From a virus (lineage: Duplodnaviria; Caudoviricetes), in IMG/VR virus record IMGVR_UViG_3300031992_000022, positions 1 to 64,000 of that record: a stretch of DNA of 64,000 nt. One strand, 5' to 3'. Below are positions 488-43,185 of this stretch, one piece after another (within the stretch, counting starts at the first letter, position 1; each line of letters opens with the position of its first letter). The notes beneath the pieces were generated by a model that saw only the letters and a list, made by a program, of their open reading frames with translations, did not search any database and had not been told where the DNA came from. The translations under genes were made by a program, and so were the position numbers.

Positions 488-3004
488 TTGAGATATTTTA
501 AAAAATATCAGAATTCCGATGTGTCAGATACTAATCCGAATAGAGATTTTGGAAGATGGAAAAGTAATATTAAACGAGCAATTGAAAGAATAAAAGAAGC
601 TAAAGAAAAAGAAAAAAACGGTGGCGGTACTTTTGGAGCTATCGGTAATGTTATGGAAAAATTTAGTAACGGTTTTGGTGACATTTTTGGATTAGAAAAT
701 GATGAAGATGAAAAAGTACCAATACAAAATATAGATTATTCATATGCAGGTATTACTGATGAAGTTATACGCGATGTATTAGATAAAAATAATGACAATG
801 TTATTCAAATAGATGAATATAAAATTAAAATTAAAGTTTCTAATATTCATGATAATAAATATGGGTCTTTATATTCTATTGCTCGATATTGTTATGGTAG
901 TCCATATAAATGGCACATTATTGCAGAATTAAATAACATCTATGAACCGACTGAGATTAAAGAAGATCAGTGGTTAGAAATATATTCTAATGAGCCAATA
1001 TCAGATTTTATTGTTAATAGTTCTAGTATAGATAATTTAGAATTACAAGAATTAAAATATCTTAGAAAATTAAAATTACAAAATTTATATAAAATTAATG
1101 ATAACGAAATTACAGTTTGTAATCGTCCATTTATTAAAGGAGAATTTATTTCTTATCCTAAATCATTACGTAGTATCCAAAAGAAAATTAATTTTAGTAA
1201 AAAATATAAAACTACATTACCACGAAAAAAGAAATTTTTTATACCAAAAAATAAAATAAATAATAATAAATTTAATTTAGCGCAAAAGATTATTCACAGT
1301 AATGAAATAAATCTTGATAATATAATTAAAACTGCCGCTTATATTAACAATGGCTATTTGTTATCAGATTATAAAGAAGAATATGATGATAATACTAATA
1401 CATGGAAAATAACATTGACTATTCCGCAAATTACCGATGAAGATATACAAGATGATTATTTATTATCAGATTATCAATCTGATAATTTATATAATGTAAT
1501 ATTAACTATTAATGAAGATGAAGAAATTTCAGTAATTAATGATGATCAATACTTATTGTCTCAATATGAAGAACATAAAATGAACAATGGAGATACAGAA
1601 GTTATTCTTACTATTTTAGATAAAGAAAAGTCGAAAGATATACAAGAAAGAACTACTACTGTTGATATTACGCCAGTTCCTATTCATTATGCTAATGATG
1701 TAGATCATTCAATTGAAGACCAAGAACAAGATCCTCAAGATAAACGGCATCCAAAACATGGTATTTCTATTACTAATAAACGTGTAAAAAAGCAAGAACT
1801 GCCTAAAAATATTCCACATAGGCCACCGCGAGATAAAAGTGATGATACTAGTACTGATACTGGTACACCACAACATGATATCCCTCCTGTACCGCAACCG
1901 GAACAAGAAGGACAAGTTACAGATAATCTTGGACCAGATAATGATTATTATCGTAATACCGAACGCGCAGCAAAGGAAAAAGCTAGCCATGCTAAGGCTG
2001 TAGCTCAACGTATTAATGAACTAGGTCAAAGTACAATTATACCACAAGCAGAAGATATTACTGAAAGTGATTTAGAGCAAAAAACTTATGATAAAGCTAC
2101 ATTTAGATCACAACGTACAGATTTAGATATACCAGTAATACCTAATGAATATGTAATTTCATTTACTTTAACTGATTCAGATCAAGAAGTATATAATTAT
2201 ATTGAAGTAGGCGGATCGCAAGCATTTGCAATTCAGCAAGGTGCTGCTGGTAGTTTACCTAGTATTTGGAGAAATATTCCAGATTTTGAACATATATTTC
2301 AATTTGGATTACGTCCGCATCCAGTATTACAATGCTCCCCCTTAGTTCAAGATGCAAACGAAGCAGTATATTTAGGTGCGCTATTATTATATAAATCGCA
2401 ATTAAATAGATATAGTGGAGTATTAACATGTATAGAAGATTCAGCAATAAAAGTTGGCAATCCTATACGAATGTATTTATATGATGAACATCCATATCCG
2501 CTAGCTAGACGATTTGGATCTAATGGATCTTTAACAGAAGAACAATTAAGAAATACACCACCATATTTTGATGAAAAGTATTATAAAGAACAAGCTGTAT
2601 TTTATGTAGAAAGTATATCACGTAATATAGACATACAAAATGTATCTACTATGACTTTACAATTAAAAAATGGTAGAGTTATGGGAATGACTAATCCTGC
2701 AGATATTTTATCAATATTTTTTGATAGATATTATGAGAGTTATCAATCGCGTAATTATTATGTCAATCGCGGAAATAATACCGCAACAGTAGCTTTACAT
2801 AGTACAGATTTATCAGGAGAAATACAAGCGCATTTAGCTGCTAAAAAGGAATCTAATACTAAATGGTGGATTAATAAGAAAAAATATGATGAAGAAGTTG
2901 CAAAAGCTAAAGAAAGAAATAAAGCATTAGAAGAACAAGGCATTAATATTCCAACAGAATCGGGAGTACCGTCTCAGACTGATGATACTGAAAAAACGTT
3001 ATAA
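488..3004 (+). CDS. Baseplate hub / tail protein with LysM-like domain (possibly the 3' part of a longer gene)
   Basis: LysM-like GSLYSIARYCYGSPYKWHIIAELNNI; C-terminal hub-like FGLR...IKVGNPIR...FYVESISRNI...TMTLQL. It lies upstream of spike/wedge/J genes. The TTG start has no SD. Confidence 0.6.
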   Translation: MRYFKKYQNSDVSDTNPNRDFGRWKSNIKRAIERIKEAKEKEKNGGGTFGAIGNVMEKFSNGFGDIFGLENDEDEKVPIQNIDYSYAGITDEVIRDVLDKNNDNVIQIDEYKIKIKVSNIHDNKYGSLYSIARYCYGSPYKWHIIAELNNIYEPTEIKEDQWLEIYSNEPISDFIVNSSSIDNLELQELKYLRKLKLQNLYKINDNEITVCNRPFIKGEFISYPKSLRSIQKKINFSKKYKTTLPRKKKFFIPKNKINNNKFNLAQKIIHSNEINLDNIIKTAAYINNGYLLSDYKEEYDDNTNTWKITLTIPQITDEDIQDDYLLSDYQSDNLYNVILTINEDEEISVINDDQYLLSQYEEHKMNNGDTEVILTILDKEKSKDIQERTTTVDITPVPIHYANDVDHSIEDQEQDPQDKRHPKHGISITNKRVKKQELPKNIPHRPPRDKSDDTSTDTGTPQHDIPPVPQPEQEGQVTDNLGPDNDYYRNTERAAKEKASHAKAVAQRINELGQSTIIPQAEDITESDLEQKTYDKATFRSQRTDLDIPVIPNEYVISFTLTDSDQEVYNYIEVGGSQAFAIQQGAAGSLPSIWRNIPDFEHIFQFGLRPHPVLQCSPLVQDANEAVYLGALLLYKSQLNRYSGVLTCIEDSAIKVGNPIRMYLYDEHPYPLARRFGSNGSLTEEQLRNTPPYFDEKYYKEQAVFYVESISRNIDIQNVSTMTLQLKNGRVMGMTNPADILSIFFDRYYESYQSRNYYVNRGNNTATVALHSTDLSGEIQAHLAAKKESNTKWWINKKKYDEEVAKAKERNKALEEQGINIPTESGVPSQTDDTEKTL

Positions 3005-3028
3005 AAATTTTATATAAATAAAGGAGGT

Positions 3029-3184
3029 TAATCTTTAGCCTCGATATTATTAATTTCTAAAAAGTGATAATTAGAATATAAAATTATATATAATATAATT
3101 TTATATCAACGTATAATAACATAATATATTCTTATAAAGATATATACTAAACTATTTTGTTGAAAAATAGATAATAAATAATTG
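3029..3184 (+). ncRNA. Miniature group I intron (156 nt) between the RBS and start codon of the downstream gene
   Basis: P1 GAGGU|UAAUCUUUA-GCCUC with U.G; P4 UUCUAA/UUAGAA; P6 hairpin; P7 ACGUAUA / AAAGAUAUAUACU; P9 CUAUUUU/AAAAUAG; ends AAUUG. The core motifs are identical to those of intron 35877-36342. Confidence 0.8.
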
Positions 3185-3190
3185 TAAAAG

Positions 3191-5665
3191 TTGTCAGCAA
3201 AAGATCATATTAATTATATTCAACAGCAAAAATTATTAATGCTTCAACAACAGCATAAAGAATTTGATCAACATTTTAATATGTATAGATTGCAAGATGG
3301 ATATATTAAAGGTCAAGGCAATAAAAAATGTAATATTGGTAGATTAGATGTAGGAGTAAACCCACCTGATCCATTATATTTTGATAATGGTATTAATCCT
3401 AATTCAGGTATGGTAACAGCTTTACCTCAAAATGAAGCAGGATTTATTGGCGGTGCTCCTGGATATAGCACGCCACCATTACCTGTACCAAGAACATCAA
3501 ATGCTGGAGCAAATTCTTATGACGTATCTGCAAATGGTACTGAAGCTGATATTTTTTCATGTTCTAATGCCGGTGTTGATTATACTGATAATCGTGATTG
3601 TAAAGCAACTATAGCTCGCCATGGTTTAGGATGTTTTCGTACATCTAGTGGACAATTAAAATGGTTTGGTAATTGGACAGAACCTGTAGCAGGACAAGAA
3701 TTTAATACAGATATGATTAATGGTAAAACGAGATTAACTGAAGCTATTACTAGTGATTTTGATAAATTATCATTACATTTACGTCCTGGTATGCATGCAA
3801 CCGGAGGTATAGGTAATAGCACTGTTGTTCAAGGACAAGGAGGAACATGGGAAGCTCGGGTCGGAGCTAATGAAAAGGAAGTAGATCCTGAAGTTGACTA
3901 TATATCTGCTGGTGTAGCAAGTGGATCAGAAGAAAATGAAATAGAATTAAAGCAGAATGAATATAATGAATTTTGTTCTATAAAAATGGATGCTAATAAC
4001 GGTAAAATTACCTTAAATGTTACTGGTGGAGAAAATCAATATAGTTCAACAATAATTATGACAGGCGATGATATTACTTGTATTACTCATGTATTTAATG
4101 TTTTAGCAGAAGATGAAATTAATATGCTAGCTGGGCAGCAAAAATCATCTATTATTATGGATAAAGATCAAATAGCAATTACAAATAATGAAAAATCATC
4201 TATTGTATTAACAAAGCCATCTATTGATATACAATCATTAATGATCTTAGAAAATGCTAAAACATTATTAAAAATGGACGCAGCAATGATTATGGAAAAT
4301 TGTAAGTCAAAAAGTGGTGCAGGTGGAGCAGCAGGAATTGCAGGAAAACTAGCATCAGTAGGAGCTAAATTAACAGCTCTAGCTTCAAATATAACTTCTG
4401 CTATTGGCGGAGCTTTAGCTAGTTCCGGATTAGGTGGTGCTTTAGGCGGAGCATTAGGAAATATGAGTGGAGCGCTAAGTGGAGCATTAGGAAATATGAG
4501 TGGAGCGCTAGGTGGTGCTTTGAGTGGTATTACTAGTCAGCTTGGAGCAGCTACAGGTATGCTAGGTAATATACAAAATATGGCAGGGAATTTAGCAGGT
4601 AATTTAGGCGGATTATCTAGTTTAAGTAATTTGGGCGGACTAGGTAATATTACACAAGGATTAAGTGGAGCAGCTAATATATTAGGTAATTCTAATTTAG
4701 GCGGTATAGGCAACGCATTACAATCAGGATTAGGTAATATATCTGGTATGGCACAACAAATACAAAGCGGAATTGGACAACAAATTGGTAATATTACAGG
4801 ATCAATACAATCAAATATACAGCAAGGAATGCAAACAATTAGTAATGCTACGCAAATGGTAAATGGAGCAATTAATCAAGGTACGCAAGCATTAGGTTCT
4901 GTGATTAATGGAGCTACTACAGCAATATCTGGTGCTGTGCAAACAATACAAACTCAGGCAGGAAGTATCGTATCAGGTACAATGGGAAAAATACAATCAA
5001 CTGTAGGACAAGCATTAGGTGGAGCTCAACTTCCATCTATAAATGATATTCCTGTTCCAATTATGCATCTGAATTCAATTGTAAATGATAGTAATTCAAT
5101 AATTCATACAAATGATACAGCTGATGAAAATAATTATGAACAATATATTAAGCAGCAACAACAAATTATATATAATACAATATATAATATGGATATTAAT
5201 GAAGAAGAAAAACAAAATTTATACTTGTATTATATAACATTATATAATTATATAATATCTATAGAACAAATTTGTAATATTATATTAATAGATTTTTCAA
5301 TAAATTTATTTACTATCAATTTATTAAATATTTATATGATTGATGTACAAGATTATACTAATAATATTAATTTAATAGTACAGGATTATATAAATAATAG
5401 TAAACAAGTTACAATAAATCAAATCATACATGATCAAAATGATAAAAAAATACAATGTTTACAAATGAAAAAATTTTTCAATACTAATTTAAAAAATGAT
5501 ATTATAAAGCAAAAAATTATAAAATTACTTGATGAATATATTAATAATTATATAAATTTAACTAATAATTTGATTATATTAATTAATAAATTATCTAATA
5601 TAAAAATTGATTTAGGCGAAATAGAAACTATTAATGAAGATAATGAATTATATAATCTATTGTAA
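3191..5665 (+). CDS. Baseplate spike (gp5/gpV/VgrG-like) with Gly/Ala/Ser-rich low-complexity region
   Basis: Beta-helix-like repeats (SSTIIMTGDDIT, SSIIMDKDQIAIT, SSIVLTKPSIDI); position between the hub and gp25-like wedge genes. Confidence 0.6.
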   Translation: MSAKDHINYIQQQKLLMLQQQHKEFDQHFNMYRLQDGYIKGQGNKKCNIGRLDVGVNPPDPLYFDNGINPNSGMVTALPQNEAGFIGGAPGYSTPPLPVPRTSNAGANSYDVSANGTEADIFSCSNAGVDYTDNRDCKATIARHGLGCFRTSSGQLKWFGNWTEPVAGQEFNTDMINGKTRLTEAITSDFDKLSLHLRPGMHATGGIGNSTVVQGQGGTWEARVGANEKEVDPEVDYISAGVASGSEENEIELKQNEYNEFCSIKMDANNGKITLNVTGGENQYSSTIIMTGDDITCITHVFNVLAEDEINMLAGQQKSSIIMDKDQIAITNNEKSSIVLTKPSIDIQSLMILENAKTLLKMDAAMIMENCKSKSGAGGAAGIAGKLASVGAKLTALASNITSAIGGALASSGLGGALGGALGNMSGALSGALGNMSGALGGALSGITSQLGAATGMLGNIQNMAGNLAGNLGGLSSLSNLGGLGNITQGLSGAANILGNSNLGGIGNALQSGLGNISGMAQQIQSGIGQQIGNITGSIQSNIQQGMQTISNATQMVNGAINQGTQALGSVINGATTAISGAVQTIQTQAGSIVSGTMGKIQSTVGQALGGAQLPSINDIPVPIMHLNSIVNDSNSIIHTNDTADENNYEQYIKQQQQIIYNTIYNMDINEEEKQNLYLYYITLYNYIISIEQICNIILIDFSINLFTINLLNIYMIDVQDYTNNINLIVQDYINNSKQVTINQIIHDQNDKKIQCLQMKKFFNTNLKNDIIKQKIIKLLDEYINNYINLTNNLIILINKLSNIKIDLGEIETINEDNELYNLL

Positions 5666-8223: not shown

Positions 8224-11200
8224 GTGTATACAGGTATTCGCCTTTCTAATTTAGCTTTAGGCGAGCCATTATTAAATCAAAATTATGAATATAACGGTAA
8301 AACAGGTAAAGATGCTATTACAGAAAGATTACACGATCAATTTTTTAAAATCTATAATTTAGGTATTAAATATGTAATTGATACTATTATAATTCAAAAT
8401 AATAATTCTATTTTGTCTTTATATCCTGGTATAGGTGGCGATATATGGACATTAGACGAACGTTTACAATTATATCAGAAATATGCCGAACAATATAATA
8501 TTAGTATTGTAGTCGAAATTGATATATCTAATATAACTGCAAGTAATGTTAATCAATATTGCAATACTATATTATATGATATAATTCTACAATATTCCTG
8601 GGTAAGGTATTGGATTATTGGTGTACAACCAGATTCGATAATAAATAATCAATATAAATGTGCTCCTGAATTATATACTTATATTTTACAACAAATATAT
8701 CCTAAAATTAAAATGTTTAATAGTAATATTTTAATTGGAGGACCTAATATTCATCAATCAATTAAACAATATATTATAAATAAAACAGGTTGGTTAAGTA
8801 TTGCATGTGGTGATCTATATAACCAAGATTATACATATAACAATTTAGGCAAAAATGGTATATTAGACTATATTGATATATTTGCTATTTTAGGTAAACA
8901 AGATAGTCAATATTGTCCTTATAATGAATACGCGAATATTGTAGACAATATTCGCGAACTACTTTATTCTAAATTAAGCACAAATAATATTTTAATTTTT
9001 GCTACTAATCAAGGACATACTGTAGCTTTAAATGATATAGATATATATAATTCTATTATTAATTCAATTACTAATACCGATATTATAGAAAACATGAACA
9101 ATATGCAGCTTAATCAATATACTCAAAATTTATTTAATGCTGCAAAAACTACCGAATTAAATAGACAAGCATATAATGATATTAAAGAAATTTGTAATGC
9201 TCTTAGATCTGGAGTAATATCATTTAAACGTGAATTATTAGATTCTAATACTTCAAAATATGGTATATATACATCTCCATCTAGTGTTGCTATTGCAAAG
9301 TCTTCTACTTATCCATTTATTTTCGATATATTAAAAAATTATACTACTATAGTTCGTGATTCTAGTATATATGAATCTAATGATAATATAGAATCTATTA
9401 CATTACAACAAGAAACTGATAATATAATAAATCGTGCAACAATTATTTGGCCGGTTTCAGAACAACCTGTACATATTATATTACAAGCAACATCTAATAT
9501 AAGACAATATTATATCAATAATGTTACTAAAAAAAATGTTGATTATACATATACAACCGAATTAACTATTACATATGATCAATTATTAGTTGTATATGAA
9601 CAAGTCAATCAATTCGTATTTGATGAAGCTGATATTAAATTAAATATTTCACGTCGATTAAGATATCAGCGAGAAATCCATGATCAAATGATGAAAGAAT
9701 TACCGTCATCATATAATAGTGATACTACTGATACTAATATTTATCGTATTATGAGAGCATTTGCTACAGAATTAGCTGATGCATCTATGCGATTAACAAT
9801 GCTAAAAGAAGACATTTCATTAGATACAGCAAGAGAAGAAGCTTTATATCATAATTTTGGTTCATTAATACGCTTACAAAAACAATCTACTTGGTCATAT
9901 GAAAAATATCGCAAATTAATTAAAGGAATATTATCTTCACTATTTCGAGGACCTACAACTAATTCAGTTGCTACAGCATTACAATTATTTACTGAATTTA
10001 AAGTATCTATTAATGAATTATATAAAGAAAAAGCGCAAAAAAAATATGCAGATTTATTACGGCATTATAATCCAGATTTTACTTTTATTATCGAAGTTGA
10101 AAAACCATTAGATAATAGTACTTATACACAAAAAGAATTAATTGAAGATAATGCTTATATATTACAATTAACTAAACCTGCACATACTATCGGAATTATC
10201 ATTATTATATTAGTCGGTAGCGAAGATTGGTATACTTTTTATAAAGACAAATACAATACTGACTGGAATACTTCTGATGAAACAAAAATTCATGCCGATT
10301 TTAGTAAGAAAATTAACGAAAATACTTATGGATGGAAAGCAATAGATTATCCTGGTACATTTACAATTTCTCCAACAGATAATGGTATATATAAGAATTC
10401 GTTATTAAATGGCAGTGCTATAATAGGGCCACAATATACTTTATTAGATACATCGCATTTAAGTAATACAGCATCATTAACTGATTTATATAATAATACT
10501 AAAATAAAAGAACAATTAATATATTCTATTGGCTTAGACGCTATCGAAGAATATAATAATTATACAAGTCAATTATGTGCAATTAGTACTGAATTAAATG
10601 AACCACGATTTGGGTTCATTGATAATAAGTATATGCAATTATCTGGAGATAATATAACAGATAAAGTATTAAATAAATATTTAGCATTTGGTAATCAATC
10701 TAAATTAAAAGATGAACTATTAGTATATCAGCAACAATTTTTTAGCGATAAATTTTTATTCTCATCTACAACTAATGCAATTAAATTTACTACACCAGAT
10801 GGAATTAGTTCACAATTTGCAGCATTAAATAATATTATCACTGAATGGCAAAATTATTTAAAAGAACATTCATTTAAAGAAAAATTAATTAACGGTCAAA
10901 TTATTGAACGTATTAGTGATAATATTAATTTATATTTAGAAGGATATAAAGAAAAATTTAAAAATATATATGAACAGCATAAATTAGCTGTAAATTTACA
11001 AGATAATGTCGATGTTACAGATGATATTACATTACCTATTAAATTAAATGAGCAATATAGTAATCATAAGTTTTTAAAACGTAAACGTGAAAAATTATTA
11101 TATAATCCATCATATAATGATTTATATAATATACCAGATGAAATATATCCATATGAATTATATTGGGATCGTATGAATAGTGAATATTTTAATCCCGTGC

Positions 11201-14200
11201 AAGATTATCATTTACATAACAATATAAATAGTTATATTTCTGATAAATTTTATCTTAAATATCATCAAAATCAAATTAGATTTAATCAATCTAATGGATA
11301 TTTATATACACAATTTGAAAAATTTAATTTAAGTTATACATATAATGATAAATATATATTCATTCCTGATGATACTTTAGGATTAAATATTATTAATTCA
11401 TATCAAGATAATTATAATTTTATAATTACAGATACAATGCCAGCATTACATAATGAATTATATGATCAATTTGGATTAAAATATAATCAAAATCGTTTAT
11501 GCTTTAATAAATTAAATGGTAAATTAATTAGTTATAATATTGAAAAATTTAATTTACATTATTGGCAAAAAGATAAATATACCTTTAATAAAGACGAAAT
11601 ATCATTAATAAATGCTTATAATACACATAAGGATGATTATAAATTTACAATTATTGAAGAAATACCAATATTACATACAGAATTAACTGATCAATTTGGA
11701 TTAAAATATCATCAAGATTATTTACGCTTTAATAACTCAAACGGCAAATTAATTAATTATCATATTGAAAAATTTAATTTACATTATTGGTATAATGATA
11801 AATATATCTTTGATAAAGATGAAATATCATTAATAAATATTTATAATGTATATAATGATAATTATAATTTTGCTATTACTGAAGAAATACCAATATTACA
11901 TACAGAATTAACTGATCAATTTGGATTAAAATATCATCAAGCAAAATTACAATTAAATAAAGATAACAAACGATTTATTAGTAATAATATTGAAAAATTT
12001 AATTTACATTACTATTTTAATGATATATTTGATAATTCTCATATACATGGATTATTAACATATCATATTGATTTTAAACCTAAAGAAATATATGATTTTT
12101 CTGTAAAAGAAACTAATACCTTAAGTACTTTATTATTCGATCGATATCAATTAAAATATCAACAAAATTATTTAAAACTAAATAAAAGTAATAATAAATT
12201 TATTAGTTATTTAATAGAAAAATATGATTTATATACATCAGCATTTGATAATTATAATTTTATTATTAAAGACGATTTATTAGCTAATATTAATTATTTT
12301 AATCAAGAAAAATATTTTCATGTTAAAGATAAATTATATAATGTATATCATGATTCTAATAATAAAGAACAATATCAATTAAAATATCAACAAAATTATT
12401 TAAAATTAAACAAAAGTAATAATAAATTTATTAATTATCTTGTAGATAAATATAATATTAATACATATTTAATAGATCAATATAATTTTTCTATTAATGA
12501 TAATTTTAATATAAACTTGAATTTTATTAATACAGATAAATATACTGTAAAAAATGAACTATATAATGTATATAATAATTTTAATGATCAGTATCAATTA
12601 AAATATCAACAAAATTATTTAAAATTAAACAAAAGTAATAATAAATTTATTAGTTATCTTGTAGATAAATATAATATTAATACATATTTAATAGATCAAT
12701 ATAATTTTCCTATTAATGATAATTTTAACATAAACTTGAATTTTATTAATACAGATAAATATACTATAAAAAATGAATTATATAATGTATATAACAATTT
12801 TAATGATCAGTATCAATTAAAATATCAACAAAATTATTTAAAACTAAACAAAAGTAATAATAAATTTATTAGTTATCTTGTAGATAAATATAATATTAAT
12901 ACATATTTAATAGATAAATATAATTTTTCTATTAATGATAGTTTTAACACATATTTATATACCACTAATATTGAAGATGAATATACTGTAGAAAATGAAC
13001 TATATAGTGTATATAACGATTTTGATGATCAATATCAATTAAAATATCAACAAAATTATTTAAAATTAAATAAAAATAATAATAAATTTATTAGTTATCT
13101 TGTAGATAAATATAATATTAATACATATTTAATAGATCAATATAAATTTTCTATTAATGATAGTTTTAATACATATTTATATACTGCTAATATTGAAGAT
13201 AAATATACTATAAAAAATGAACTATATAGTGTATATAACAATTTTAATGATCAGTATCAGTTAAAATATCAACAAAATTATTTAAAACTAAATAAAAATA
13301 ATAATAAATTCATTAGTTATCTTGTAGATAAATATAGTTTTAATACATATTTAATAGATAAATATAAATTTTCTATTAATGATAGTTTTAATACATATTT
13401 ATATACTGCTAATATTGAAGATGAATATACAGTAAAAAATGAACTATATAGTGTATATAATAATTTTGACGATCAGTATCAGTTAAAATATCAACAAAAT
13501 TATTTAAAATTAAATAAAAGTAATAATAAATTTATTAGTTATCTTGTAGATAAATATAATATTAATACATATTTAATAGATAAATATAATTTTTCTATTA
13601 ATGATAGTTTTAATACATATTTATATACCGCTAATATTGAAGATAAATATACTGTAAAGAATGAATTATATAATGTATATAACAATTTTGAAGATCAATA
13701 TTATATTTTTGATGAAGATGATAATAATTATTTAAAATTTATAACTAAAATATATAATATTGATATAAACAATAACAATATTCATACAAATGAAATTAAT
13801 ACAAATAATTTACGTTTATCATTATTTAAATTATATGGCATATTAAAATTTAATAGTATATCTCCTACATTAATATATCGAGATAAATATAATTGTTTTA
13901 TTGATGATACTATATTTTATAATATTAATTCTTTTAATAAAGAATTATATAAAATAAAAAATGAATTATATTTAATAAATAATAATTTTCAAGATCAATA
14001 TTCAATATATGATGAAGATAATGCTTTAATTTTAAATAAACATAATGGTGTATTTATTAGTAAATATGCAATAAAATATTATCTTAATCCTATATATAAT
14101 GATAAATATAACTCTAATATTAAAAATGAATATCTAACATATTATAATAATTCAGAATATGAATTATATAAAGTAAAAAATGAATTATATTCAATAAATA

Positions 14201-15996
14201 ATAATTTTCAAGATAAATATTCAATATATGATGAAGATAATGCTTTAATTTTAAATAAACATAATGGTGTATTTATTAGTAAATATGCGATAAAATATTA
14301 TCTTAATCCTATTTATAATGATAAATATAATTCTAATATTAAAAATGAATATCTAACACATTATAATAATTCAGAATATGAATTATATAATATAAAAAAT
14401 ACAAAATATGAATGGAATCCTGATTTAACTGATAAATATTCAATATATGATGAAGATAATGCTTTAATTCTAAATAAACATAATGGTATATTTATTAGTA
14501 AATATGCTACAAAATATCATTTTAATCCTATTTATAATGATAAATATATAGGATTAAAAAATTGTATTCCTACATTTACTACTAATACTCTTAGCGAAGA
14601 TCAATATTATACTAAAAATGATAATATTGCAGAATTACATCCAAATTATAGTGAACATTATATTTTAGACGAAAATATATATCGATTTAATAAATTTAAT
14701 GGAAGACTAATGAGTATTCCGGTAACAAAATATATGTTTAATTATAGATATAAAGAAAAAGATATCTTTCATATAAAAGAAAATTATTTTAATCATTTAC
14801 AATATTTTAATAAAGATCAGATTATTAAAAATATATTAGATAAATCTTCAATAAATATAACAAGTTCATATAATCAAATATATGATAAAGCATATGATAA
14901 CTTTTTAATTCATTATTATAAAAATAATTATGATAAATTTAACAAAATAAATGAAATTAATTTTAAGCATATATTTAGTTATTATAAAGAACAAGTCAAA
15001 GACATAGTAGAAAATTTATTCATAAATATAAATGCTACATATAATCAAATATATGATAAAGCTACTGAATGGAATTTAACGCATTATTATAATAACAATA
15101 ATGATATATTTAATCCTATACAAGAAGATAATTATTATAATCATTTATATAGTTATTATAATGAACAAATTAGCAATATAATTGATAATTCACATATACA
15201 TTATAAATATACATATTATCAAATTTATAATAAAGTAAAAGAATTTAGTATTCCTAATTTTATATCATTTGATAAATATAAGCTAGTAAATGAAATAAAT
15301 AATATATATAATCAAAGTAGTTATAATGAAATATTTAATACCCCGAAAAGTAAAATTAATTTAATACAATCAGATAATACTGATGAATATTTTAATTTAA
15401 ATATTGATATTAGAAATCCTTTACAATTTAATAAAATGCAATTAAATAAATGTAAATTTATTACTACGAGTAATGAAACATGTGATATTAATTTACTACC
15501 TGAAACTGATAATTTTAATTTACCGCAAGAATTAAATATAACGGATATATATAATACAGAAATTATAGAAAATCCAGAAGAAAATATAGAAGTAAATTGC
15601 GGTTTTAAAGAAGACAGCATATATAATAATGATATTCATCCTTTTCAATTTAATCTTTCACAATTTAATCAGCATAAATTTACATATAATAATATTATTG
15701 AGGATATATCATGTAATATTATTAATACTGAGTATATGATAAAGCCTATATTAATTTTAAATCATATAAATATTCAATATAAAGAATATATTAAAAAAGC
15801 ACAAAGTAAAATAACAATCAATACTGATATGGCATATAATGAAACTTATAAGAAATATATTACTTCTTATATTAGTGAAATAGTAAAAAATGAATATGAA
15901 AAAAAATATGAAATAGCATCTTCAGTTGCATATATGCAAGCAGAAAAAAGAATTAATAATCAATATATAATTATTAAGAAAAATAGTTATGTATAA
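8224..15996 (+). CDS. Giant baseplate/tail protein: glycoside-hydrolase-like N-terminus, wedge (gpI/gp7-like) middle, long tandem-repeat C-terminus
   Basis: RYWIIGVQPD...ILIGGP...YIDIFAI (GH-A-like); LYHNFGSLI...YRKLIK...GPT...TKPAHT (wedge-like); 73-75 aa repeats; follows baseplate J. Confidence 0.6.
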   Translation: MYTGIRLSNLALGEPLLNQNYEYNGKTGKDAITERLHDQFFKIYNLGIKYVIDTIIIQNNNSILSLYPGIGGDIWTLDERLQLYQKYAEQYNISIVVEIDISNITASNVNQYCNTILYDIILQYSWVRYWIIGVQPDSIINNQYKCAPELYTYILQQIYPKIKMFNSNILIGGPNIHQSIKQYIINKTGWLSIACGDLYNQDYTYNNLGKNGILDYIDIFAILGKQDSQYCPYNEYANIVDNIRELLYSKLSTNNILIFATNQGHTVALNDIDIYNSIINSITNTDIIENMNNMQLNQYTQNLFNAAKTTELNRQAYNDIKEICNALRSGVISFKRELLDSNTSKYGIYTSPSSVAIAKSSTYPFIFDILKNYTTIVRDSSIYESNDNIESITLQQETDNIINRATIIWPVSEQPVHIILQATSNIRQYYINNVTKKNVDYTYTTELTITYDQLLVVYEQVNQFVFDEADIKLNISRRLRYQREIHDQMMKELPSSYNSDTTDTNIYRIMRAFATELADASMRLTMLKEDISLDTAREEALYHNFGSLIRLQKQSTWSYEKYRKLIKGILSSLFRGPTTNSVATALQLFTEFKVSINELYKEKAQKKYADLLRHYNPDFTFIIEVEKPLDNSTYTQKELIEDNAYILQLTKPAHTIGIIIIILVGSEDWYTFYKDKYNTDWNTSDETKIHADFSKKINENTYGWKAIDYPGTFTISPTDNGIYKNSLLNGSAIIGPQYTLLDTSHLSNTASLTDLYNNTKIKEQLIYSIGLDAIEEYNNYTSQLCAISTELNEPRFGFIDNKYMQLSGDNITDKVLNKYLAFGNQSKLKDELLVYQQQFFSDKFLFSSTTNAIKFTTPDGISSQFAALNNIITEWQNYLKEHSFKEKLINGQIIERISDNINLYLEGYKEKFKNIYEQHKLAVNLQDNVDVTDDITLPIKLNEQYSNHKFLKRKREKLLYNPSYNDLYNIPDEIYPYELYWDRMNSEYFNPVQDYHLHNNINSYISDKFYLKYHQNQIRFNQSNGYLYTQFEKFNLSYTYNDKYIFIPDDTLGLNIINSYQDNYNFIITDTMPALHNELYDQFGLKYNQNRLCFNKLNGKLISYNIEKFNLHYWQKDKYTFNKDEISLINAYNTHKDDYKFTIIEEIPILHTELTDQFGLKYHQDYLRFNNSNGKLINYHIEKFNLHYWYNDKYIFDKDEISLINIYNVYNDNYNFAITEEIPILHTELTDQFGLKYHQAKLQLNKDNKRFISNNIEKFNLHYYFNDIFDNSHIHGLLTYHIDFKPKEIYDFSVKETNTLSTLLFDRYQLKYQQNYLKLNKSNNKFISYLIEKYDLYTSAFDNYNFIIKDDLLANINYFNQEKYFHVKDKLYNVYHDSNNKEQYQLKYQQNYLKLNKSNNKFINYLVDKYNINTYLIDQYNFSINDNFNINLNFINTDKYTVKNELYNVYNNFNDQYQLKYQQNYLKLNKSNNKFISYLVDKYNINTYLIDQYNFPINDNFNINLNFINTDKYTIKNELYNVYNNFNDQYQLKYQQNYLKLNKSNNKFISYLVDKYNINTYLIDKYNFSINDSFNTYLYTTNIEDEYTVENELYSVYNDFDDQYQLKYQQNYLKLNKNNNKFISYLVDKYNINTYLIDQYKFSINDSFNTYLYTANIEDKYTIKNELYSVYNNFNDQYQLKYQQNYLKLNKNNNKFISYLVDKYSFNTYLIDKYKFSINDSFNTYLYTANIEDEYTVKNELYSVYNNFDDQYQLKYQQNYLKLNKSNNKFISYLVDKYNINTYLIDKYNFSINDSFNTYLYTANIEDKYTVKNELYNVYNNFEDQYYIFDEDDNNYLKFITKIYNIDINNNNIHTNEINTNNLRLSLFKLYGILKFNSISPTLIYRDKYNCFIDDTIFYNINSFNKELYKIKNELYLINNNFQDQYSIYDEDNALILNKHNGVFISKYAIKYYLNPIYNDKYNSNIKNEYLTYYNNSEYELYKVKNELYSINNNFQDKYSIYDEDNALILNKHNGVFISKYAIKYYLNPIYNDKYNSNIKNEYLTHYNNSEYELYNIKNTKYEWNPDLTDKYSIYDEDNALILNKHNGIFISKYATKYHFNPIYNDKYIGLKNCIPTFTTNTLSEDQYYTKNDNIAELHPNYSEHYILDENIYRFNKFNGRLMSIPVTKYMFNYRYKEKDIFHIKENYFNHLQYFNKDQIIKNILDKSSINITSSYNQIYDKAYDNFLIHYYKNNYDKFNKINEINFKHIFSYYKEQVKDIVENLFININATYNQIYDKATEWNLTHYYNNNNDIFNPIQEDNYYNHLYSYYNEQISNIIDNSHIHYKYTYYQIYNKVKEFSIPNFISFDKYKLVNEINNIYNQSSYNEIFNTPKSKINLIQSDNTDEYFNLNIDIRNPLQFNKMQLNKCKFITTSNETCDINLLPETDNFNLPQELNITDIYNTEIIENPEENIEVNCGFKEDSIYNNDIHPFQFNLSQFNQHKFTYNNIIEDISCNIINTEYMIKPILILNHINIQYKEYIKKAQSKITINTDMAYNETYKKYITSYISEIVKNEYEKKYEIASSVAYMQAEKRINNQYIIIKKNSYV
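11250..14560 (+). repeat. Coding tandem repeats of about 219-225 bp in three sub-families
   Basis: DQFGLKY units (about 11464, 11689, 11914); QYQLKYQQNYLKLNK units (about 12370, 12589, 12808, 13030, 13252, 13474); YSIYDEDNALILNKHNG units (about 13998, 14217, 14436). Confidence 0.9.
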
Positions 15997-24349: not shown

Positions 24350-26625
24350 ATAATGATAGGTAAAAGCTATTAACTTTTTTCCCCCATTCCACACCGTACG
24401 AGTAGTTTTCACTACATACGGCGTTCCATCAATTATATATAATTTATAACATTAAATTATTTTAATTTAATATATTAATTATTTTGTTTCATATATTGAA
24501 TTAAATTTTTTTAATAAAGGCTTACGAAATTTAATATATCCTATAGGATATATATTAATACCAGCTAAATATCTTACTTGCTTACTATATTTATATTTTT
24601 CTGATTTACATTGACCACATTTATTCACATGTAATCGATTAATAATTATATTATTTATTATATTATTTATTTTATGAAAACTAATATTAACACAAGTTGC
24701 AATTTCATAATAATTATGAATACATTCAACTAATTGATTATATTTATTAATCATTAATAATCTATTATTACCTGAAGAATGTTGAATTTCTATTATCTGT
24801 TTTTTTAATTTATTAATTATAAATTTTATATTTTCATCAGATACGTATACTTGTATTACTCGTTTCATATTTTTACGCAATATTTTATATTTAAATCCTA
24901 AAAATATATCACATTTATGATTTAAATTTATTACTTGCGTTTGCTCTTCATTTATTTCTAATTTTAATCGTTTTTGTATCCATTCTATTACTGCTATTTT
25001 TATTCGTTTGGCTTGGTCTAAATTCCTACAGAATATTCTAATATTATCCATATAACGAATAATATATATTTCTTTTAAATTAGTTTGTTTTAAAGCACGA
25101 ATTTTATTACCATGATCGGAATATTGATGTTTTGTAGAAAAATTATTCCATTGACTTTCAATCCATTGATCTAATTCATTTAAAACTATATTTGTAAATG
25201 TAGCTGTTAAAAGTCCACACTGAAATATACCAGATTTTAATTGTTGTATTGAATTATTTACTTGTAAATTACTCTGCAATATTTTTTTTAATCTATACAA
25301 AAATTTAGTATCTTGTATTCCTAACGTCCATAATTGCCGTATTAATTTACTATGATTAACATTAGTATAAAAATCATTAATATTAATTTGTACTACATAA
25401 TATAAATCATTAATATTAATTTTTTGATATAATTCAGCAATTGCATTCTCTACAGATCTACCTGGACGAAATCCATAACTATGTGGACTAAATTTAGCTT
25501 CACAAATCGGTTCAAGAATTTGCTTAAAACATTGTTGTATAATTTTATCATAAATATTAGATATACTAATAGGAATTATTTGACCATTAATTTTTTGTAT
25601 TTCTGTTTTATATATTATATTAGATTTATAATAAATTATTTTCTGCCGTATTGTTTGTATTAATTCTTCTTCAGATAAATTTTTTATATCATTAGAATTT
25701 ATACAAAATTTAAATAAATTTTTTTGAATATTCTTATAAGCAAGTCTAATATTTTCATCCGTAATTACTCTATTTAATAATTTAGTAAATATTCGGCCTA
25801 TTTTAGTTTGTTCATAAAGATCATAATTAATATTATTAAACACAAGGTATCACCAATCTTTTAATATTATAAAAGTGTGCATTTTTTATCATACTCGAAT
25901 CCTTGTTAATAATTATATTTTTAAATTATATATAATTAACTTGTGTCCATTCCTATAATCTTCATTATAAAGATTTTTAAAACGGTTCGAACACTACTTT
26001 TCAGTACCAATTCAATTGCTTATTTTTCTTCGTCAATTTACATTATTTAAATAATGTTTGATACCTTTCCTTGTTCCATTATCTCTATCTTTTTATATAG
26101 CCTTAGATCAGCACTCTAAGCCTGTAAGCTGGATATAACCCGCCACATTTTTTATAAAATGTTTCGTTATATATAGTTTTTCATAGTTCACCATTTTTAC
26201 TCAACTACACTTACAATTCACTAAGAATCTATTACATTTCTGTAATATCTACGTTTAGACCTGTACATTCGTGCTTTCGTCAATTTCTTAACTAAGAAAT
26301 ATTCTAATCATAGCTATTTTCATTAACTTTTTAAAATTAAACAGACTCCCGGCATTCCATTACACGTTTATATTAAAACGATTGCCTCATCAACATAATG
26401 TCATGTTAGGATAACTGATGCCGACTTTCGCGAGCTCTCTTACATTTTTTGGACTAATGAACAATAAAATTGTTAAAATGCAAGTCGCAGTTTTAGAGAG
26501 AGTATTTCAGAACGTTACTTCTTTCATTCTACTCTTCGAGATAATAGTTCATATTTATAATAAATATGTATCAGTTTTAATATATTCTTCGCAGAATATA
26601 CATTAAGCTGATAAACAAGTCGCCC
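24350..26625 (-). mobile_element. Group II intron (2276 nt) in the SSB gene
   Basis: 5' end GGGCGACTTG (variant of GUGCG); domain V GAACGCCGTATGTAGTGAAAACTACTCGTACGGTG; domain VI ending ACCTATCATTAT. Removal restores the frame. Confidence 0.9.
24479..25843 (-). CDS. Group II intron RT/maturase with degenerate catalytic motifs and no endonuclease domain
   Basis: FSPHSYGFRPGRSVENAI and ILEPICEAKF; YMDN replaces YADD; GIFQCG replaces GTPQGG. Confidence 0.9.
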   Translation of the reverse strand: MFNNINYDLYEQTKIGRIFTKLLNRVITDENIRLAYKNIQKNLFKFCINSNDIKNLSEEELIQTIRQKIIYYKSNIIYKTEIQKINGQIIPISISNIYDKIIQQCFKQILEPICEAKFSPHSYGFRPGRSVENAIAELYQKININDLYYVVQININDFYTNVNHSKLIRQLWTLGIQDTKFLYRLKKILQSNLQVNNSIQQLKSGIFQCGLLTATFTNIVLNELDQWIESQWNNFSTKHQYSDHGNKIRALKQTNLKEIYIIRYMDNIRIFCRNLDQAKRIKIAVIEWIQKRLKLEINEEQTQVINLNHKCDIFLGFKYKILRKNMKRVIQVYVSDENIKFIINKLKKQIIEIQHSSGNNRLLMINKYNQLVECIHNYYEIATCVNISFHKINNIINNIIINRLHVNKCGQCKSEKYKYSKQVRYLAGINIYPIGYIKFRKPLLKKFNSIYETK

Positions 26626-35033: not shown

Positions 35034-35696
35034 TTAAGTCTTATGCAATAATCGTTTAGCAATGCGTTGTAATTTTTTTAAATCTTTAAAATTGTCTTCA
35101 TCAGCAACTAAATCGCCAACATATATTTTAATAAATCCGGCTTGTTTTAAGGCATCTTTTACAAGAGTACTATTTATTCTATTAGAAACAGCATTTAAAT
35201 CAATAATTGCTACTTTTCCTGCGCAAATATGGCCAAAAGCTAATGCGCCTACAGATTTTATTGTACGTTTACTTGGTATATCATATGATTCTCCCCGAAA
35301 ACCTTTGATTTTTGCTAACAATTTAGGATCACTCGTAACAGCATAAGCTAAATGATTATGAGTTACCCACCATTCTTGCCCAGGTGGATTGTATAAAGTA
35401 TATACTTTACCATTATAATAAATCCATACACCATCTCTTTCATTTTCAGGTGTTTCACCCATATTTATTTTATCTTTTACTTCATCATGTAAAGACTGTA
35501 ATTCACTAGGTTTTACATCATTAAATTTAGCATCAGTATATAATTTATTATAATTTTCATCATTTTCATTAGCATATTCGGGCCTATACATTTTAAATCG
35601 ATTAACACCGGTATCTGTAACTTGAACATTTTCTTTTGCATAATTAGTATATTTCTTTAAAAGTTCATCATTATTTGCATATAATAAACGTGACAA
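35034..35696 (-). CDS. Hypothetical protein (distant paralog of 36692-37606)
   Basis: IYYNGKV...H...ALAFGH resembles LLINNEI...H...IALGH; the two genes share an upstream cassette. Confidence 0.6.
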   Translation of the reverse strand: MSRLLYANNDELLKKYTNYAKENVQVTDTGVNRFKMYRPEYANENDENYNKLYTDAKFNDVKPSELQSLHDEVKDKINMGETPENERDGVWIYYNGKVYTLYNPPGQEWWVTHNHLAYAVTSDPKLLAKIKGFRGESYDIPSKRTIKSVGALAFGHICAGKVAIIDLNAVSNRINSTLVKDALKQAGFIKIYVGDLVADEDNFKDLKKLQRIAKRLLHKT

Positions 35697-35712
35697 ATAT
35701 TTTTCACCTTCT

Positions 35713-35780
35713 TTATAAAAAAATAATATAATAATAAATAAAAAATAAAGGCTTAGGTTTTTATTTTAAGCCTTTATTTT
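35713..35780 (-). repeat. Terminator plus putative promoter cassette, copy 1 (copy 2 at 37628-37693)
   Basis: TAAAAAATAATATA..AATAAATAAAAAATAAAGGCT..G.TTTTTATT.TAAGCCTTTAT occurs at both loci. Confidence 0.75.
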
Positions 35781-35801
35781 AAAGGTTTTTATATATAAAT
35801 A

Positions 35802-35876
35802 TTAAGCATGTGTTACACGATCTTTTAATTCACAACGCTTAGCATTATTCCATCTGTCTACCGTACCTGTTAAATA
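35802..35876 (-). CDS. nrdD: Stand-alone NrdD glycyl-radical subunit, exon 2
   Basis: YLTGTVDRWNNAKRCELKDRVTHA*, the canonical NrdD C-terminus; missed by the ORF track. Confidence 0.9.
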   Translation of the reverse strand, partial: YLTGTVDRWNNAKRCELKDRVTHA

Positions 35877-36342
35877 CAAATTTATTAATTTAATATTAGA
35901 TATTAACTATTTATTTCTAAATAGTTTAGTATATATCTTTTATTTAGATAACATATAATTTTTTATTTTGACTGAATATCAATACAAATTTTTCCATTAG
36001 CAATATATTGATTATCTATCCACCAATGTTCGTCAAATATTGCTAATTTTTCTAATGCTTGTTCTAATGAATAATCTGTTATAATCAGTAACATTAATTG
36101 ATCATCTATATATTCTAAACGTAAATATGCATAATCAAAATAATCATTAATTTTATTAATTATAATATTTAATATTTCATTTAAACAATTATCATTTAAA
36201 TATTGCTGAATGCTTTTATTAATAATCATGAATTATTATCCTTTAATTATATTAATATACGTTGATATATTTATTAATAAATATATTCTAATTAACTATT
36301 ATAGTTTTCTTAGAAAAAAATATAATACCAAGCTAATTATTA
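35877..36342 (-). ncRNA. Group I intron (466 nt) directly after the radical glycine codon, carrying an 88-aa ORF
   Basis: CAGGU|UAAUAAUUA-GCUUG P1; P4 UUCUAA/UUAGAA; P7 ACGUAUA/UAUACU; ends AAUUUG. The join gives RRITG|YLTG. Confidence 0.9.
35963..36229 (-). CDS. Intron-encoded 88-aa protein with no recognisable nuclease motif
   Basis: SD AAAGGA; lies between the two P7 strands; EQALEKLAIFDEHWW motif. Confidence 0.65.
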   Translation of the reverse strand: MIINKSIQQYLNDNCLNEILNIIINKINDYFDYAYLRLEYIDDQLMLLIITDYSLEQALEKLAIFDEHWWIDNQYIANGKICIDIQSK

Positions 36343-36579
36343 ACCTGTAATACGACGAATTCTACCAATTTTAGGTTGATCTTCATCATTATATTCTACA
36401 TCAAAAGTCGTACCTTGTTCAGTTTTCGTTACAATAATTTTACTAATTACAGCTACATCAATATCTTTATGTTCTTCAGCATAATTAATTGCAGCTTTAG
36501 CCATAACATCTGTAATTGTATCTTCTTCATTAAAATCTTTAAATACTACAGTAATATGGTCAATGGTAAATTTTTTCAT
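36343..36579 (-). CDS. nrdD: Stand-alone NrdD glycyl-radical subunit, exon 1
   Basis: SD GGAGG, ATG at 36579; ends RIRRITG. Spliced length 103 aa. Confidence 0.85.
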
Positions 36580-36691
36580 ATAAAATATAACCTCCACAAA
36601 AAATTTTTATTTTAATATAAAATAAAAATTAAAATAAACAAAAAATAATAATTAGATAATTAATCTAATCAATATTATAATGTATATTTAA

Positions 36692-37606
36692 TTAATATTG
36701 TAATGTATATCTATCGTTTAATTGTAAATAATTATTTATATTATTTTCTTGAAAATATTCATTAGTCGCTAATATTGCATCTTGTATTGCGTAATAAATA
36801 TTTTTTGCTACATCTTCATCTGCAATATTAGTATTAGTTAATATTAAATTTATTTTTAATACAAATGAATTATAATTAGTAATATAATCAATATTGCAAT
36901 CTTGAAAACCACGTATAAATGCTAATTCTGTAAGTAAATTAGCATTAAAAATACTTGTTTTTAAGGGTGTTAAATATGAAAAATTTAATACATTAATATT
37001 AGTAACCAACCATGAATGTTCAATATCCATTTTTAAATTTTTATTAGGTGTATATAAAACTTGATCTGTTTCATCATCAATAACAATTGCATTAGGAAAT
37101 TTATTAACAATACATTGCATTACATTATTAAATGTCATATTAGTAATAGATGGCATTATTAATGCGACTTTTTCTTTTCCCTGAATATTTTTTATATAAT
37201 GTCCTAATGCTATTGGTATTTTCGTAAATGTTAAATTTCTTGTGCCATATTCCCATATAGCTTCTTTCAATTGTGTATTAAAATATTCATGTTTTTCCAT
37301 TAATCTAACTTGTTGTAAAGCCATTCGCTCAATTCGCTCATTAGATAATTTATCTTTATAATAAGTAAAATAATATTCAAAAACGAATTGTTTTAATAAA
37401 TTATGTTTTTTTAAATATTTAAATAATGCTGCAGGATGATTATCTGCTAAAATAATTTCATTATTAATTAATAATATAGCTTGATTTCGATTATTTACAC
37501 CATGTAAAGCAATATGCTTTAATAAAGCTATTTTCTGTACTGCTGCTATTCTCTGAGTATTTATACTTTTTTGTATTAATGCAATACGTTTTAAAATTCT
37601 ATTCAT
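36692..37606 (-). CDS. Hypothetical protein lying between the nrdD body and the glycyl-radical subunit gene
   Basis: 304-aa ORF with its own upstream cassette. Confidence 0.7.
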   Translation of the reverse strand: MNRILKRIALIQKSINTQRIAAVQKIALLKHIALHGVNNRNQAILLINNEIILADNHPAALFKYLKKHNLLKQFVFEYYFTYYKDKLSNERIERMALQQVRLMEKHEYFNTQLKEAIWEYGTRNLTFTKIPIALGHYIKNIQGKEKVALIMPSITNMTFNNVMQCIVNKFPNAIVIDDETDQVLYTPNKNLKMDIEHSWLVTNINVLNFSYLTPLKTSIFNANLLTELAFIRGFQDCNIDYITNYNSFVLKINLILTNTNIADEDVAKNIYYAIQDAILATNEYFQENNINNYLQLNDRYTLQY

Positions 37607-37627
37607 GCCAACACTTCCATTTTTATT

Positions 37628-37693
37628 ATATAAAAAAAATAATATAGTAATAAATAAAAAAATAAAGGCTAGATTTTTATTGTAAGCCTTTAT
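37628..37693 (-). repeat. Terminator plus putative promoter cassette, copy 2
   Basis: Near-identical to 35713-35780. Confidence 0.75.
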
Positions 37694-37705
37694 AAAAAAT
37701 ATATA

Positions 37706-38122
37706 TTATTTTATATCTAAGTTAAAATCTACTTCATAATGTTGATTATCTACATGTTCATGATATCCACAAATTGGACAAGCTTTATTAATAAAAGATG
37801 CTTGTTTACACGCTGGACAATAATCAGCAGACTTAGTATTAATAGCAAAATAATTCATTTGACTATCATGCATAGCTCTGATTATTTGTTCAAAAGCTTT
37901 TAAATTTTTTGTAGCGTCGCCATCAAATTCTATATATGAAATTATACCAGCATTACATAATGCATGATATGGAGCTTCTATTTTTATTTTATCAGCAAAA
38001 GAAATTTGATAATTAACAGGAACATGAGAAGAATTAGTAAAATATTCTTTATCAGTTACGCCTATAATATTACCATATTTCTTTCGCGTTAATTTACATA
38101 ATCGTCCAGCACAACTTTCTGC
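37706..38122 (-). CDS. nrdD: Class III RNR large subunit, exon 7
   Basis: AESCAGRL...YFTNSSHVPV...CPAC...CPICG Zn site; stops before the glycyl-radical motif. Confidence 0.9.
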   Translation of the reverse strand, partial: AESCAGRLCKLTRKKYGNIIGVTDKEYFTNSSHVPVNYQISFADKIKIEAPYHALCNAGIISYIEFDGDATKNLKAFEQIIRAMHDSQMNYFAINTKSADYCPACKQASFINKACPICGYHEHVDNQHYEVDFNLDIK

Positions 38123-38456
38123 CATATATACCGCTATTTTCATAGTATTTATCTAAAAAATTCTTATTTAATAAATTTATGGCGGATTAGACTATCTCTT
38201 TACCTATAAAAGTAATTAATATTTCATATATAATATTTCAATTATATATTACTTAATTAGTCGTTACACTTTAATATATATATTAAAGCACGGTATTACC
38301 AGCTATCTTTATATCAAAGACCTTAGGTTCTCTTAGAAAGCTTATTCATCTATATAACATATATAAATTTATTCACTTTTACCGTTAGCATATATTATTT
38401 ATAATTAATATATACACCTTAGATTTCTAAGTTAATTAATTTAAGTCCCACATTTT
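38123..38456 (-). ncRNA. Group I intron nrdD-I6 (334 nt)
   Basis: P1 AGUCCU|AAAAUGU-GGGACU; P4 AACGGUA/UACCGUG; P7 ACGACUA/UAGUCU; join SSP|AES. Confidence 0.9.
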
Positions 38457-38933
38457 AGGACTCGAAAAAGTAGACCAATTTAATTTTTCCTCATTAATAT
38501 ATTTATCAGTCATTGCACGTAAATGACTAATAATTAAATATCCTAATTGTTGCGCTTTTTGAGACTGTCCGTGATGTTCGCCTATTAATGCAGTTAAACA
38601 TTCAGCCAATCCAACAAAGCCAATAGATAATGATGCATGTTTTAATACTGATTCAATTGTATCACTTGGTTTTAATTTATCACTATCCATATAAACATGT
38701 TGTTCCATTAAAAACGGAAAATTATATACATGTTTTTGACAAATAACATAAAATCTATCTAATAAATAATCATGTGCTAATTGAATATATTTATCAAATA
38801 ATTCAAAAAATTTACTAACATCTTTATTAGCTTCTATAGCTAGCATAGGTAAATTAATTGTAGTAAAAGCAAAATTTCCTCGAGATCCACTTTCTTCTGG
38901 ACCATTAACATTACCCATAACTCTTGTTCTACA
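38457..38933 (-). CDS. nrdD: Class III RNR large subunit, exon 6
   Basis: CRTRV...GRGNF-like SRGNFAFTTINLP, SIGFVGLAECL. Confidence 0.92.
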
Positions 38934-40150: not shown

Positions 40151-40174
40151 ACTTGACTACCAGCTCTGCTATTT
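40151..40174 (-). CDS. nrdD: Class III RNR large subunit, exon 3 (24-nt micro-exon)
   Basis: Encodes (L)NSRAGSQ(V), the conserved SRAGxQ motif. Confidence 0.9.
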
Positions 40175-43178: not shown

Positions 43179-43185
43179 CTGACTT

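Follow-up and report, generated by a model that had tools for sequence, protein, structure and literature searches.

A putative reduced group I-type intron within the ribosome-binding site of a phage tail-module gene

The locus and its genes

The IMG/VR virus record IMGVR_UViG_3300031992_000022 (Caudoviricetes) is a single contig of 158,834 bases with a G+C content of 22.5%, whose first 64 kb (64,000 nucleotides, nt) form the window analysed here. The public sequencing runs that contain it carry the label sheep gut. Near its beginning, a 156-nt element without an open reading frame (ORF), at 3029..3184 on the + strand, lies between the Shine-Dalgarno (SD) sequence and the start codon of a tail-module gene, and is considered here as a candidate group I-type intron. 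The upstream gene, an 838-amino-acid (aa) ORF of the tail module (488..3004, +; phrog_14367, unknown function), has its stop codon at 3002-3004, 24 nt before the putative 5′ splice site. It is followed by the SD sequence AAGGAGGT (3021..3028, +), which makes up the final 8 nt of the 5′ exon, by TAATCTTTAGCCTC directly 3′ of it at 3029-3042, and farther on by ATATCAACGTATA (3103-3115) and AAAGATATATACTAAACTATT (3136-3156). The element closes with AATTG at 3184. The spacer TAAAAG (3185..3190, +), read from the sequence as the opening 6 nt of the 3′ exon, leads to the TTG start codon of an 824-aa ORF (3191..5665, +). The first-pass annotation, made from the letters alone, had placed all of these features correctly, from the stop at 3004 to the TTG at 3191. 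In addition, a contig from DNA run X1 spans the whole stretch 1500-5500 without difference, so that the element is no assembly error; this run may itself be the source of the record.

The start codon of the downstream gene is central to the argument. Two full-length homologues of the 824-aa protein, P0002 and P0003, share 33% identity with it over 97% of the query, and their starts fall within one residue of TTG 3191. Because both align from their first residues, TTG 3191 is, on sequence comparison, well placed as the start, with no 5′ extension. The genes on the 3′ side encode a sheath-initiator-like protein and then Baseplate_J. For the 824-aa protein, no Pfam or NCBIfam family was found, and its resemblance to tape-measure, central-fibre and coiled-coil proteins is weak. 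It is called here a tail/baseplate-module protein, with no more exact role assigned; the earlier designation as a spike is not established, the matches being weak and tape-measure-like.

Anatomy of the element and its family

The two motifs of the element recur at three other places in the genome, all on the - strand (36342-35877, 67296-67055 and 71266-71041). Alignment with the copy at 35877-36342 gives 22 nt at 100% and 24 nt at 91.7% identity, in agreement with the likeness noticed in the first pass. At least 144 matches to the motif-pair pattern were read in viral and metagenome contigs, nearly all of them due to chance; among the matches listed, the true family members lay in one IMG/VR contig and two contigs of one metagenome, and the pattern had no match in the genome contigs. 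A covariance model, R1, was built from 11 ORF-less copies and yields 18 matches at E ≤ 1 in 208,236 bases, 11 of them the seeds themselves; nine lie in this genome. The ORF-less copies are mostly 156-257 nt long with 8-18% G+C, and their P2 and P5 are absent or tiny. The element described here, one of the seeds, is the best R1 match (86.8 bits, E 3e-13). The match to the structured model runs over its full length, at 3039-3180. All core positions that are invariant in the family (34 columns) are retained; the element has a G+C content of 13% and contains no ORF of 40 aa or more. Twelve members with both junctions assigned were tabulated; the two capsid-gene copies D and D3, five of the seven new covariance-model matches, L147 and L148 were excluded, as their junctions could not both be fixed.

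The predicted structure begins with the P1 hairpin (3024..3042, +), in which exon GAGGU and intron UAA pair with UUA and the guide GCCUC, placing the SD inside the helix. The U3028·G3038 wobble of P1 marks the 5′ splice site. The first-pass proposal of a P1 helix with a U·G pair at the junction is borne out by folding, since the GAGGUUAA/UUAGCCUC hairpin of 8 base pairs (bp) is the predicted fold, at -8.8 kcal/mol (z -3.4, equalled by 0/200 shuffles). A tentative 5′ strand of P3, AUUAU (3046..3050, +), was matched by eye with AUAAU at 3121-3125. In P4 (3055..3076, +), UUCUAA at 3055-3060 pairs with UUAGAA at 3071-3076; 97% of the alignment cells are paired, and four of the six pairs have changed on both sides. 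The helix encloses a 10-nt A-rich loop, with As at both ends, in place of J4/5 and P5. The P6 hairpin (3077..3105, +), found by RNAalifold, is 90% paired, and all eight of its pairs have changed on both sides. It is followed by J6/7 UCAAC and the 5′ strand of P7, GUAUA at 3111-3115 (together 3106..3115, +; compare UUCAaAGACUA in the Rfam group I consensus), and by a tentative, minimal P8 of 3 bp with a UUCU loop (3126..3135, +; 69% paired). J8/7 AAAGAUA and the 3′ strand of P7, UAUAC at 3143-3147, occupy 3136..3147 (+; compare AAGAUAUAGUCu in the same consensus), and P7 is 100% paired, with compensatory change in three of its five pairs. A P9 hairpin of CUAUUUU with AAAAUAG (3152..3170, +) is 63% paired in a region where the alignment is poor. 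The 3′ splice site is placed after ..AAUUG, at a terminal G (3184, +), and G is likewise the last base of all 12 tabulated members, in a U-rich context (..UUG or ..AUG).

Across the whole R1 alignment, 84.8% of cells pair. The proportion is 67.5% in shuffled alignments, none of 500 reaching the observed value, and 40-49% with the pairing partners displaced. Most copies carry P7 as GUAUA/UAUAC, and the other variants are GCAUA/UAUGC, GUGCA/UGUAC and the canonical GACUA/UAGUC.

The hairpin at the beginning of the element also suggests an explanation without any intron, in which 3024-3042 would end transcription of the upstream gene as an intrinsic terminator, and what follows would be ordinary AT-rich intergenic DNA with a repeat found also at other places. 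A scan does flag 3024-3042 followed by GATATTATTA as such a signal (8 pairs, three of them G-C; one found against 0.1 expected in shuffles), and an RNA contig ends at 3026. That contig, however, ends before the hairpin and not after it, the T tract is broken, and 3043-3190 contains no promoter-like site. Furthermore, the same hairpin layout begins family members that interrupt reading frames, and a terminator there would do harm; the end-to-end fit of 3039-3180 to the family model does not suit intergenic DNA. This explanation is regarded as highly improbable.

Splitting of the ribosome-binding site and its recurrence

In the DNA, the SD sequence has no ATG, GTG or TTG at a usable distance on its 3′ side, and the start lies 163 nt away. 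Conversely, the first six candidate starts of the 824-aa ORF are all without an SD-like match before them, which agrees with the earlier remark that TTG 3191 lacks a nearby SD. Excision of 3029-3184 would join GGAGGT to TAAAAG and the TTG, leaving 7 nt between GGAGG and the start codon. Starts led by GGAGG in this genome have spacings of 4-12 nt, and the value is exactly 7 in four of 19; the ribosome-binding site (RBS) of the spliced leader would fall within that range. The genome contains 54 GAGGT sites, 22 of which stand before start codons, 15 in long ORFs and 17 elsewhere; among these last 17, only the one at 3024 has its complement GCCTC just downstream. As a separate observation on spacing, AAAGGAGG (window 62523-62551) stands 16 nt 5′ of the ATG of an ORF at 62549.., a distance unusually long for this genome.

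The same arrangement is found in three relatives on other contigs. The copy at L122 6968-7198 has a 5′ exon ending in ..TGAGGT and a 3′ exon of G, 10 nt and ATG; that at L091 11028-11284 follows ..CGAGGT and precedes G, 11 nt and ATG; and that at L091 4891-5279 lies between ..AGAGGT and G, 10 nt and ATG. Their guides (GCCUU, GCCUCG and GCCUUUU, in the same order) match their own exons, and GAGGTG at a spacing of 10-11 also occurs at the window genes 5777, 6289 and 8224. The ATG of the L122 case opens a 1786-aa tail-fibre-like ORF. The leader of that gene also holds a 19-codon upstream ORF (L122 6920-6979, ATG at 6920), which crosses the 5′ splice site and ends in the intron.

Counting the element itself, four of the 12 tabulated members split an RBS, and the insertion points of another two fall in the first five codons of a gene. 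Because the three relatives share the layout of GAGGT, intron, G, 10-11 nt and ATG, RBS splitting is, by sequence, a recurrent feature of the family.

Family copies that interrupt reading frames

Other members lie within coding sequence. For instance, the copy at 71266-71041 (-, 226 nt; L001 7041-7266) is preceded by an SD, an ATG and 4.3 codons, and the 165-aa frame beyond it lacks its own start codon and gives a weak minor-capsid-family match from profile position 7; the split gene is minor-capsid- or scaffold-like. The copy at 130287-130102 (-, 186 nt; L004 6102-6287) follows GAGGTG, 9 nt, ATG and 3.7 codons. Only the spliced frame is open there, and the frame from an ATG 2 bases past the intron stops after 16 codons. 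The copy at 36342-35877 (-) has an in-frame stop at its beginning and interrupts an open frame, and the 184-nt copy at L006 3203-3020, which is also without P5, interrupts an open frame as well. Because these four copies split frames, the reduced architecture is, judging from the reading frames, retained where a failure of splicing would destroy the gene.

The copy at 35877-36342 carries an 88-aa ORF (window 35963-36229, -) in its P8 region. No Pfam or PHROG match was obtained for this ORF, and it is not recognisable as a homing endonuclease. The exon before this copy gave nothing in PDB and Pfam searches, and the label 'nrdD' for that small gene was not confirmed. The residues RRITG/YL there may be those of a glycyl-radical enzyme.

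Assignment to group I

Several features link the family to group I introns. In all 12 tabulated members the 5′ exon ends in U opposite the G that begins the guide sequence, and the guides pair over 4-7 bp with their own, differing exons (GAGGT, CAGGT, TGGGT, AGTAGT, CAGCT and others). Random T-ending 10-mers pair as well in 1.3-12.4% of cases per member (86/2000 for this element), so that the P1s are singly only modestly unlikely; jointly, at a constant place before P3, they are not chance. P1 hairpin geometry is alike in the four members folded, the element and three relatives. Furthermore, AUCAACGUAUA and AAGAUAUAUACU, set beside the Rfam strings UUCAaAGACUA and AAGAUAUAGUCu, differ from them by two compensatory pairs, and UCAACG-P7 with AAGAUAUA-P7′ agrees with the consensus that Rfam shows for group I in its matches to the Twort introns.

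With the Twort orf142 group I introns, the family shares the P1 U·G pair with its guide, the terminal G and the J6/7-P7 and J8/7-P7′ motifs. Phage introns of this type also share with it the P4/P6 and P3/P8 layout, a peripheral-loop ORF (in one family copy) and, in copies that split coding sequence, an in-frame stop just inside the intron. The differences are that the family goes undetected by the curated group I model RF00028, that its P2 and P5 are tiny or absent, and that its P7 is mostly GUAUA/UAUAC. Furthermore, unlike conventional phage introns, a third of the tabulated copies (4/12) sit in RBSs, outside coding sequence.

A number of observations weigh against reading the element as a splicing group I intron. 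RF00028 at its gathering score has no match in the window or the rest of the genome, and none even at E ≤ 10 in 2800-3400, 35600-45000 or L001 2900-7400, although the three Twort orf142 introns, used as a positive control, score 63.6-100.9 bits. Conversely, R1 does not find the real introns of Twort. P5 is absent, P8 has at most 3 bp, P3, P8 and P9 lack statistical support, and at 13% G+C many alternative pairings are possible. Fitting the R1 alignment to the model in itself favours pairing, and the junctions of the RBS cases were chosen partly by P1 pairing. Searches of viral, metagenome and genome contigs, the phages collection and contig G001 yielded no relative of the 824-aa protein, and with it no intron-less allele for comparison. 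No SD-like site stands at the first start of 41 of the 127 long ORFs, so that SD-independent initiation may occur in the host. Finally, the joint 3028>3185, which the first-pass annotation had suggested looking for, is absent from the contigs on 1500-5500 of two metatranscriptome runs from sheep gut (X4, X5) and of two DNA runs (X3, X1); with a patchy RNA cover of about 4x, this speaks neither way. The X4 RNA contigs include 2805-3026 and, as the next listed, 3204-3354; there are other holes and 141 pieces unshown, and the gap between the two says nothing.

Because RF00028 matches no copy and R1 misses the Twort introns, the family is filed as a strongly reduced, divergent branch that is group I-type by its anatomy and not by a curated model. 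What stands of the first-pass identification is thus a real intron-like family with P1, P4/P6/P7 and a terminal G; recognition as group I by RF00028 is not part of it.

Proposed mechanism and its alternatives

Taken together, these results make it likely that 3029-3184 is a splicing-competent, ORF-less reduced group I-type intron inserted in an RBS, and that translation of the downstream gene depends on its removal. The anatomy indicates that the element probably splices and that the start codon is probably served only afterwards. According to this model, a reduced, AT-rich group I-type intron would have inserted into the RBS of a late gene of the tail module. The SD of the precursor would be paired with the guide in P1 and lie 163 nt from the start, giving poor initiation at TTG 3191. 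Two transesterifications would cleave after U3028 and ligate to U3185; ligation would free the SD from P1 and bring GGAGG to 7 nt 5′ of the TTG, so that the 824-aa protein could be translated. The first-pass claim that splicing builds the initiation site is supported in this form by the SD within P1, the resulting spacing and, above all, the three relatives.

The alternative that accepts the insertion without the splicing is an inactive or rarely spliced relic, with translation of the unspliced RNA either by SD-independent initiation at UUG or through a fold that bridges SD and start. The 41 long ORFs with no SD-like site at their first start would fit such initiation, the element is smaller than other group I introns known to us and has no P5, and the RNA contigs hold no junction, albeit at a cover that decides nothing. 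Against a relic stands the retention of all invariant core positions, of an intact P1 with its U·G pair and of the terminal G, together with the highest R1 score of all copies (the element being itself a seed). Furthermore, the equally reduced, P5-less L006 3203-3020 copy (184 nt) interrupts an open frame. In a folded precursor the SD would be paired in P1 and hence not free, and initiation of a structural protein at an SD-less UUG would be weak. A relic is accordingly considered improbable, if well ahead of the terminator.

Splicing as such leaves the question of why an intron should lie in an RBS. The simplest reading is that of a selfish insertion and not of a dedicated switch, which would be tolerated because splicing rebuilds the RBS. 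The guide GCCUC resembles an anti-SD sequence, which may explain how relatives came to land at GAGGT/G in the RBSs of other genes. Clustering in initiation regions would then reflect target choice, GAGGU being among the few sites that allow a stable P1 at 22% G+C. In addition, an intron placed before the start codon would never be entered by translating ribosomes.

The first pass had gone further and suggested a timing or GTP-sensing role. In such a regulated switch, the rate of splicing would time or dose the tail protein, being set by the GTP level, by a phage or host cofactor, or by the 30S subunit and the guide competing for the SD. Its layout would resemble that of the cyclic di-GMP-II (c-di-GMP-II) ribozyme of C. 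difficile, where, according to a review, splicing puts an RBS before the start (PMC3984707). Half of the tabulated members (6/12) are inserted at a translation start or no more than five codons from one, far above random insertion in transcribed DNA. However, no aptamer or other RNA family is found at E ≤ 10 in 2800-3400, and the 5′ splice site follows the upstream stop by only 24 nt. The genes concerned have no relation to one another (tail-module, tail-fibre-like and others), the genome has many other introns, and the guides simply match GAGGT, so that target preference alone accounts for the positions. A sensing or timing role is not supported, and a regulated switch is deemed unlikely, though marginally less so than a relic.

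A broader and speculative reading, somewhat better placed than a switch at this one gene but still doubtful, is that a lineage of miniature group I ribozymes, through guides mimicking the anti-SD, homes to RBSs as a class. The 30S subunit and the ribozyme would then compete for the same five bases, late genes would become conditional on splicing, and the phage could exploit this checkpoint for timing or dosage.

Comparison with known systems and significance

Distant SD sequences and start codons are known from T4 genes 38 and 25, whose split RBSs are bridged by a hairpin. The separation of SD and start in primary sequence is common to both situations. In T4, a small hairpin brings the two closer together in an RNA that remains whole, whereas here 156 nt intervene, the SD is itself in a helix and the insert has intron features. 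As regards size, the Azoarcus model intron measures about 205 nt, and we know of no group I intron smaller than the 156-nt element. With no P5 and a 3-bp P8, it would rank among the smallest natural group I ribozymes.

In the accessible part of the review literature, group I introns of bacteria and phages are described in tRNA, rRNA and protein-coding sequence. The closest parallel is the C. difficile system in which a c-di-GMP-II riboswitch and a group I ribozyme in the 5′ untranslated region act together and splicing positions the RBS (PMC3984707, as far as its text was accessible). Shared with it are a group I-type intron in a 5′ leader and an RBS set at working distance by splicing, which for the phage element is read from sequence only. 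Going by the same text, the phage element differs in having no aptamer (2800-3400) and no known alternative attack site, in that the family occupies intercistronic or promoter-proximal leaders of structural genes, and in that the 5′ splice site stands at the end of the SD, in a layout that recurs at several genes. IStrons, as described in the accessible text of their survey (PMC4227781), contain a part derived from an insertion sequence (IS), whereas the element here has 156 nt, no IS ends and no TnpB, and the window holds no omega-RNA match. The accessible parts of that survey and of an IStron preprint do not mention RBSs.

Within the literature consulted, partly in incomplete texts, the only published splicing-assembled RBS found is the riboswitch-controlled C. 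difficile ribozyme, and no phage intron between an SD and its start was found (supplementary files not covered). The family described here would reach the same outcome without a riboswitch, in four cases at unrelated phage structural genes, with a guide that reads the SD itself. If these introns splice, RBSs are a natural target class, and gene callers would miss or mis-start the genes concerned. Potential uses include a minimal ribozyme scaffold and a natural part for splicing-gated translation.

Other elements and repeats in the genome

ARAGORN found no tRNA or tmRNA gene in the whole 158.8 kb. A blastn search of 3000-3200 against phages returned a match to gp89 of Corynebacterium phage P1201, which was dismissed as a chance similarity of AT-rich sequence.

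Mobile RNA elements are not restricted to the family. Two tandem family introns enclose a 45-nt, G+C-rich mini-exon (67342-67296), and just downstream of them lies a HEARO (IscB-type omega) RNA (99.2 bits; genome 66508-66734, -). A group II intron, complete by Rfam, occupies window 24350-26552 (-), with domains D1-D4 at 26338-26552 (100.5 bits), domain V/VI at 24350-24426 (56.1 bits) and a 454-aa ORF (24479..25843) between them. Because of this intron, both intron classes are represented in the phage.

Repeats are found in two further regions of the window. Long arrays of 219-225-nt tandem repeats, 63-97% alike, cover 11315-15244 within a 2590-aa ORF (8224..15996). Between 38215 and 41116, repeats of 45-125 nt occur in three to four copies that are 76-93% alike and about 1.3 kb apart; these look like a second intron family reused in one gene.

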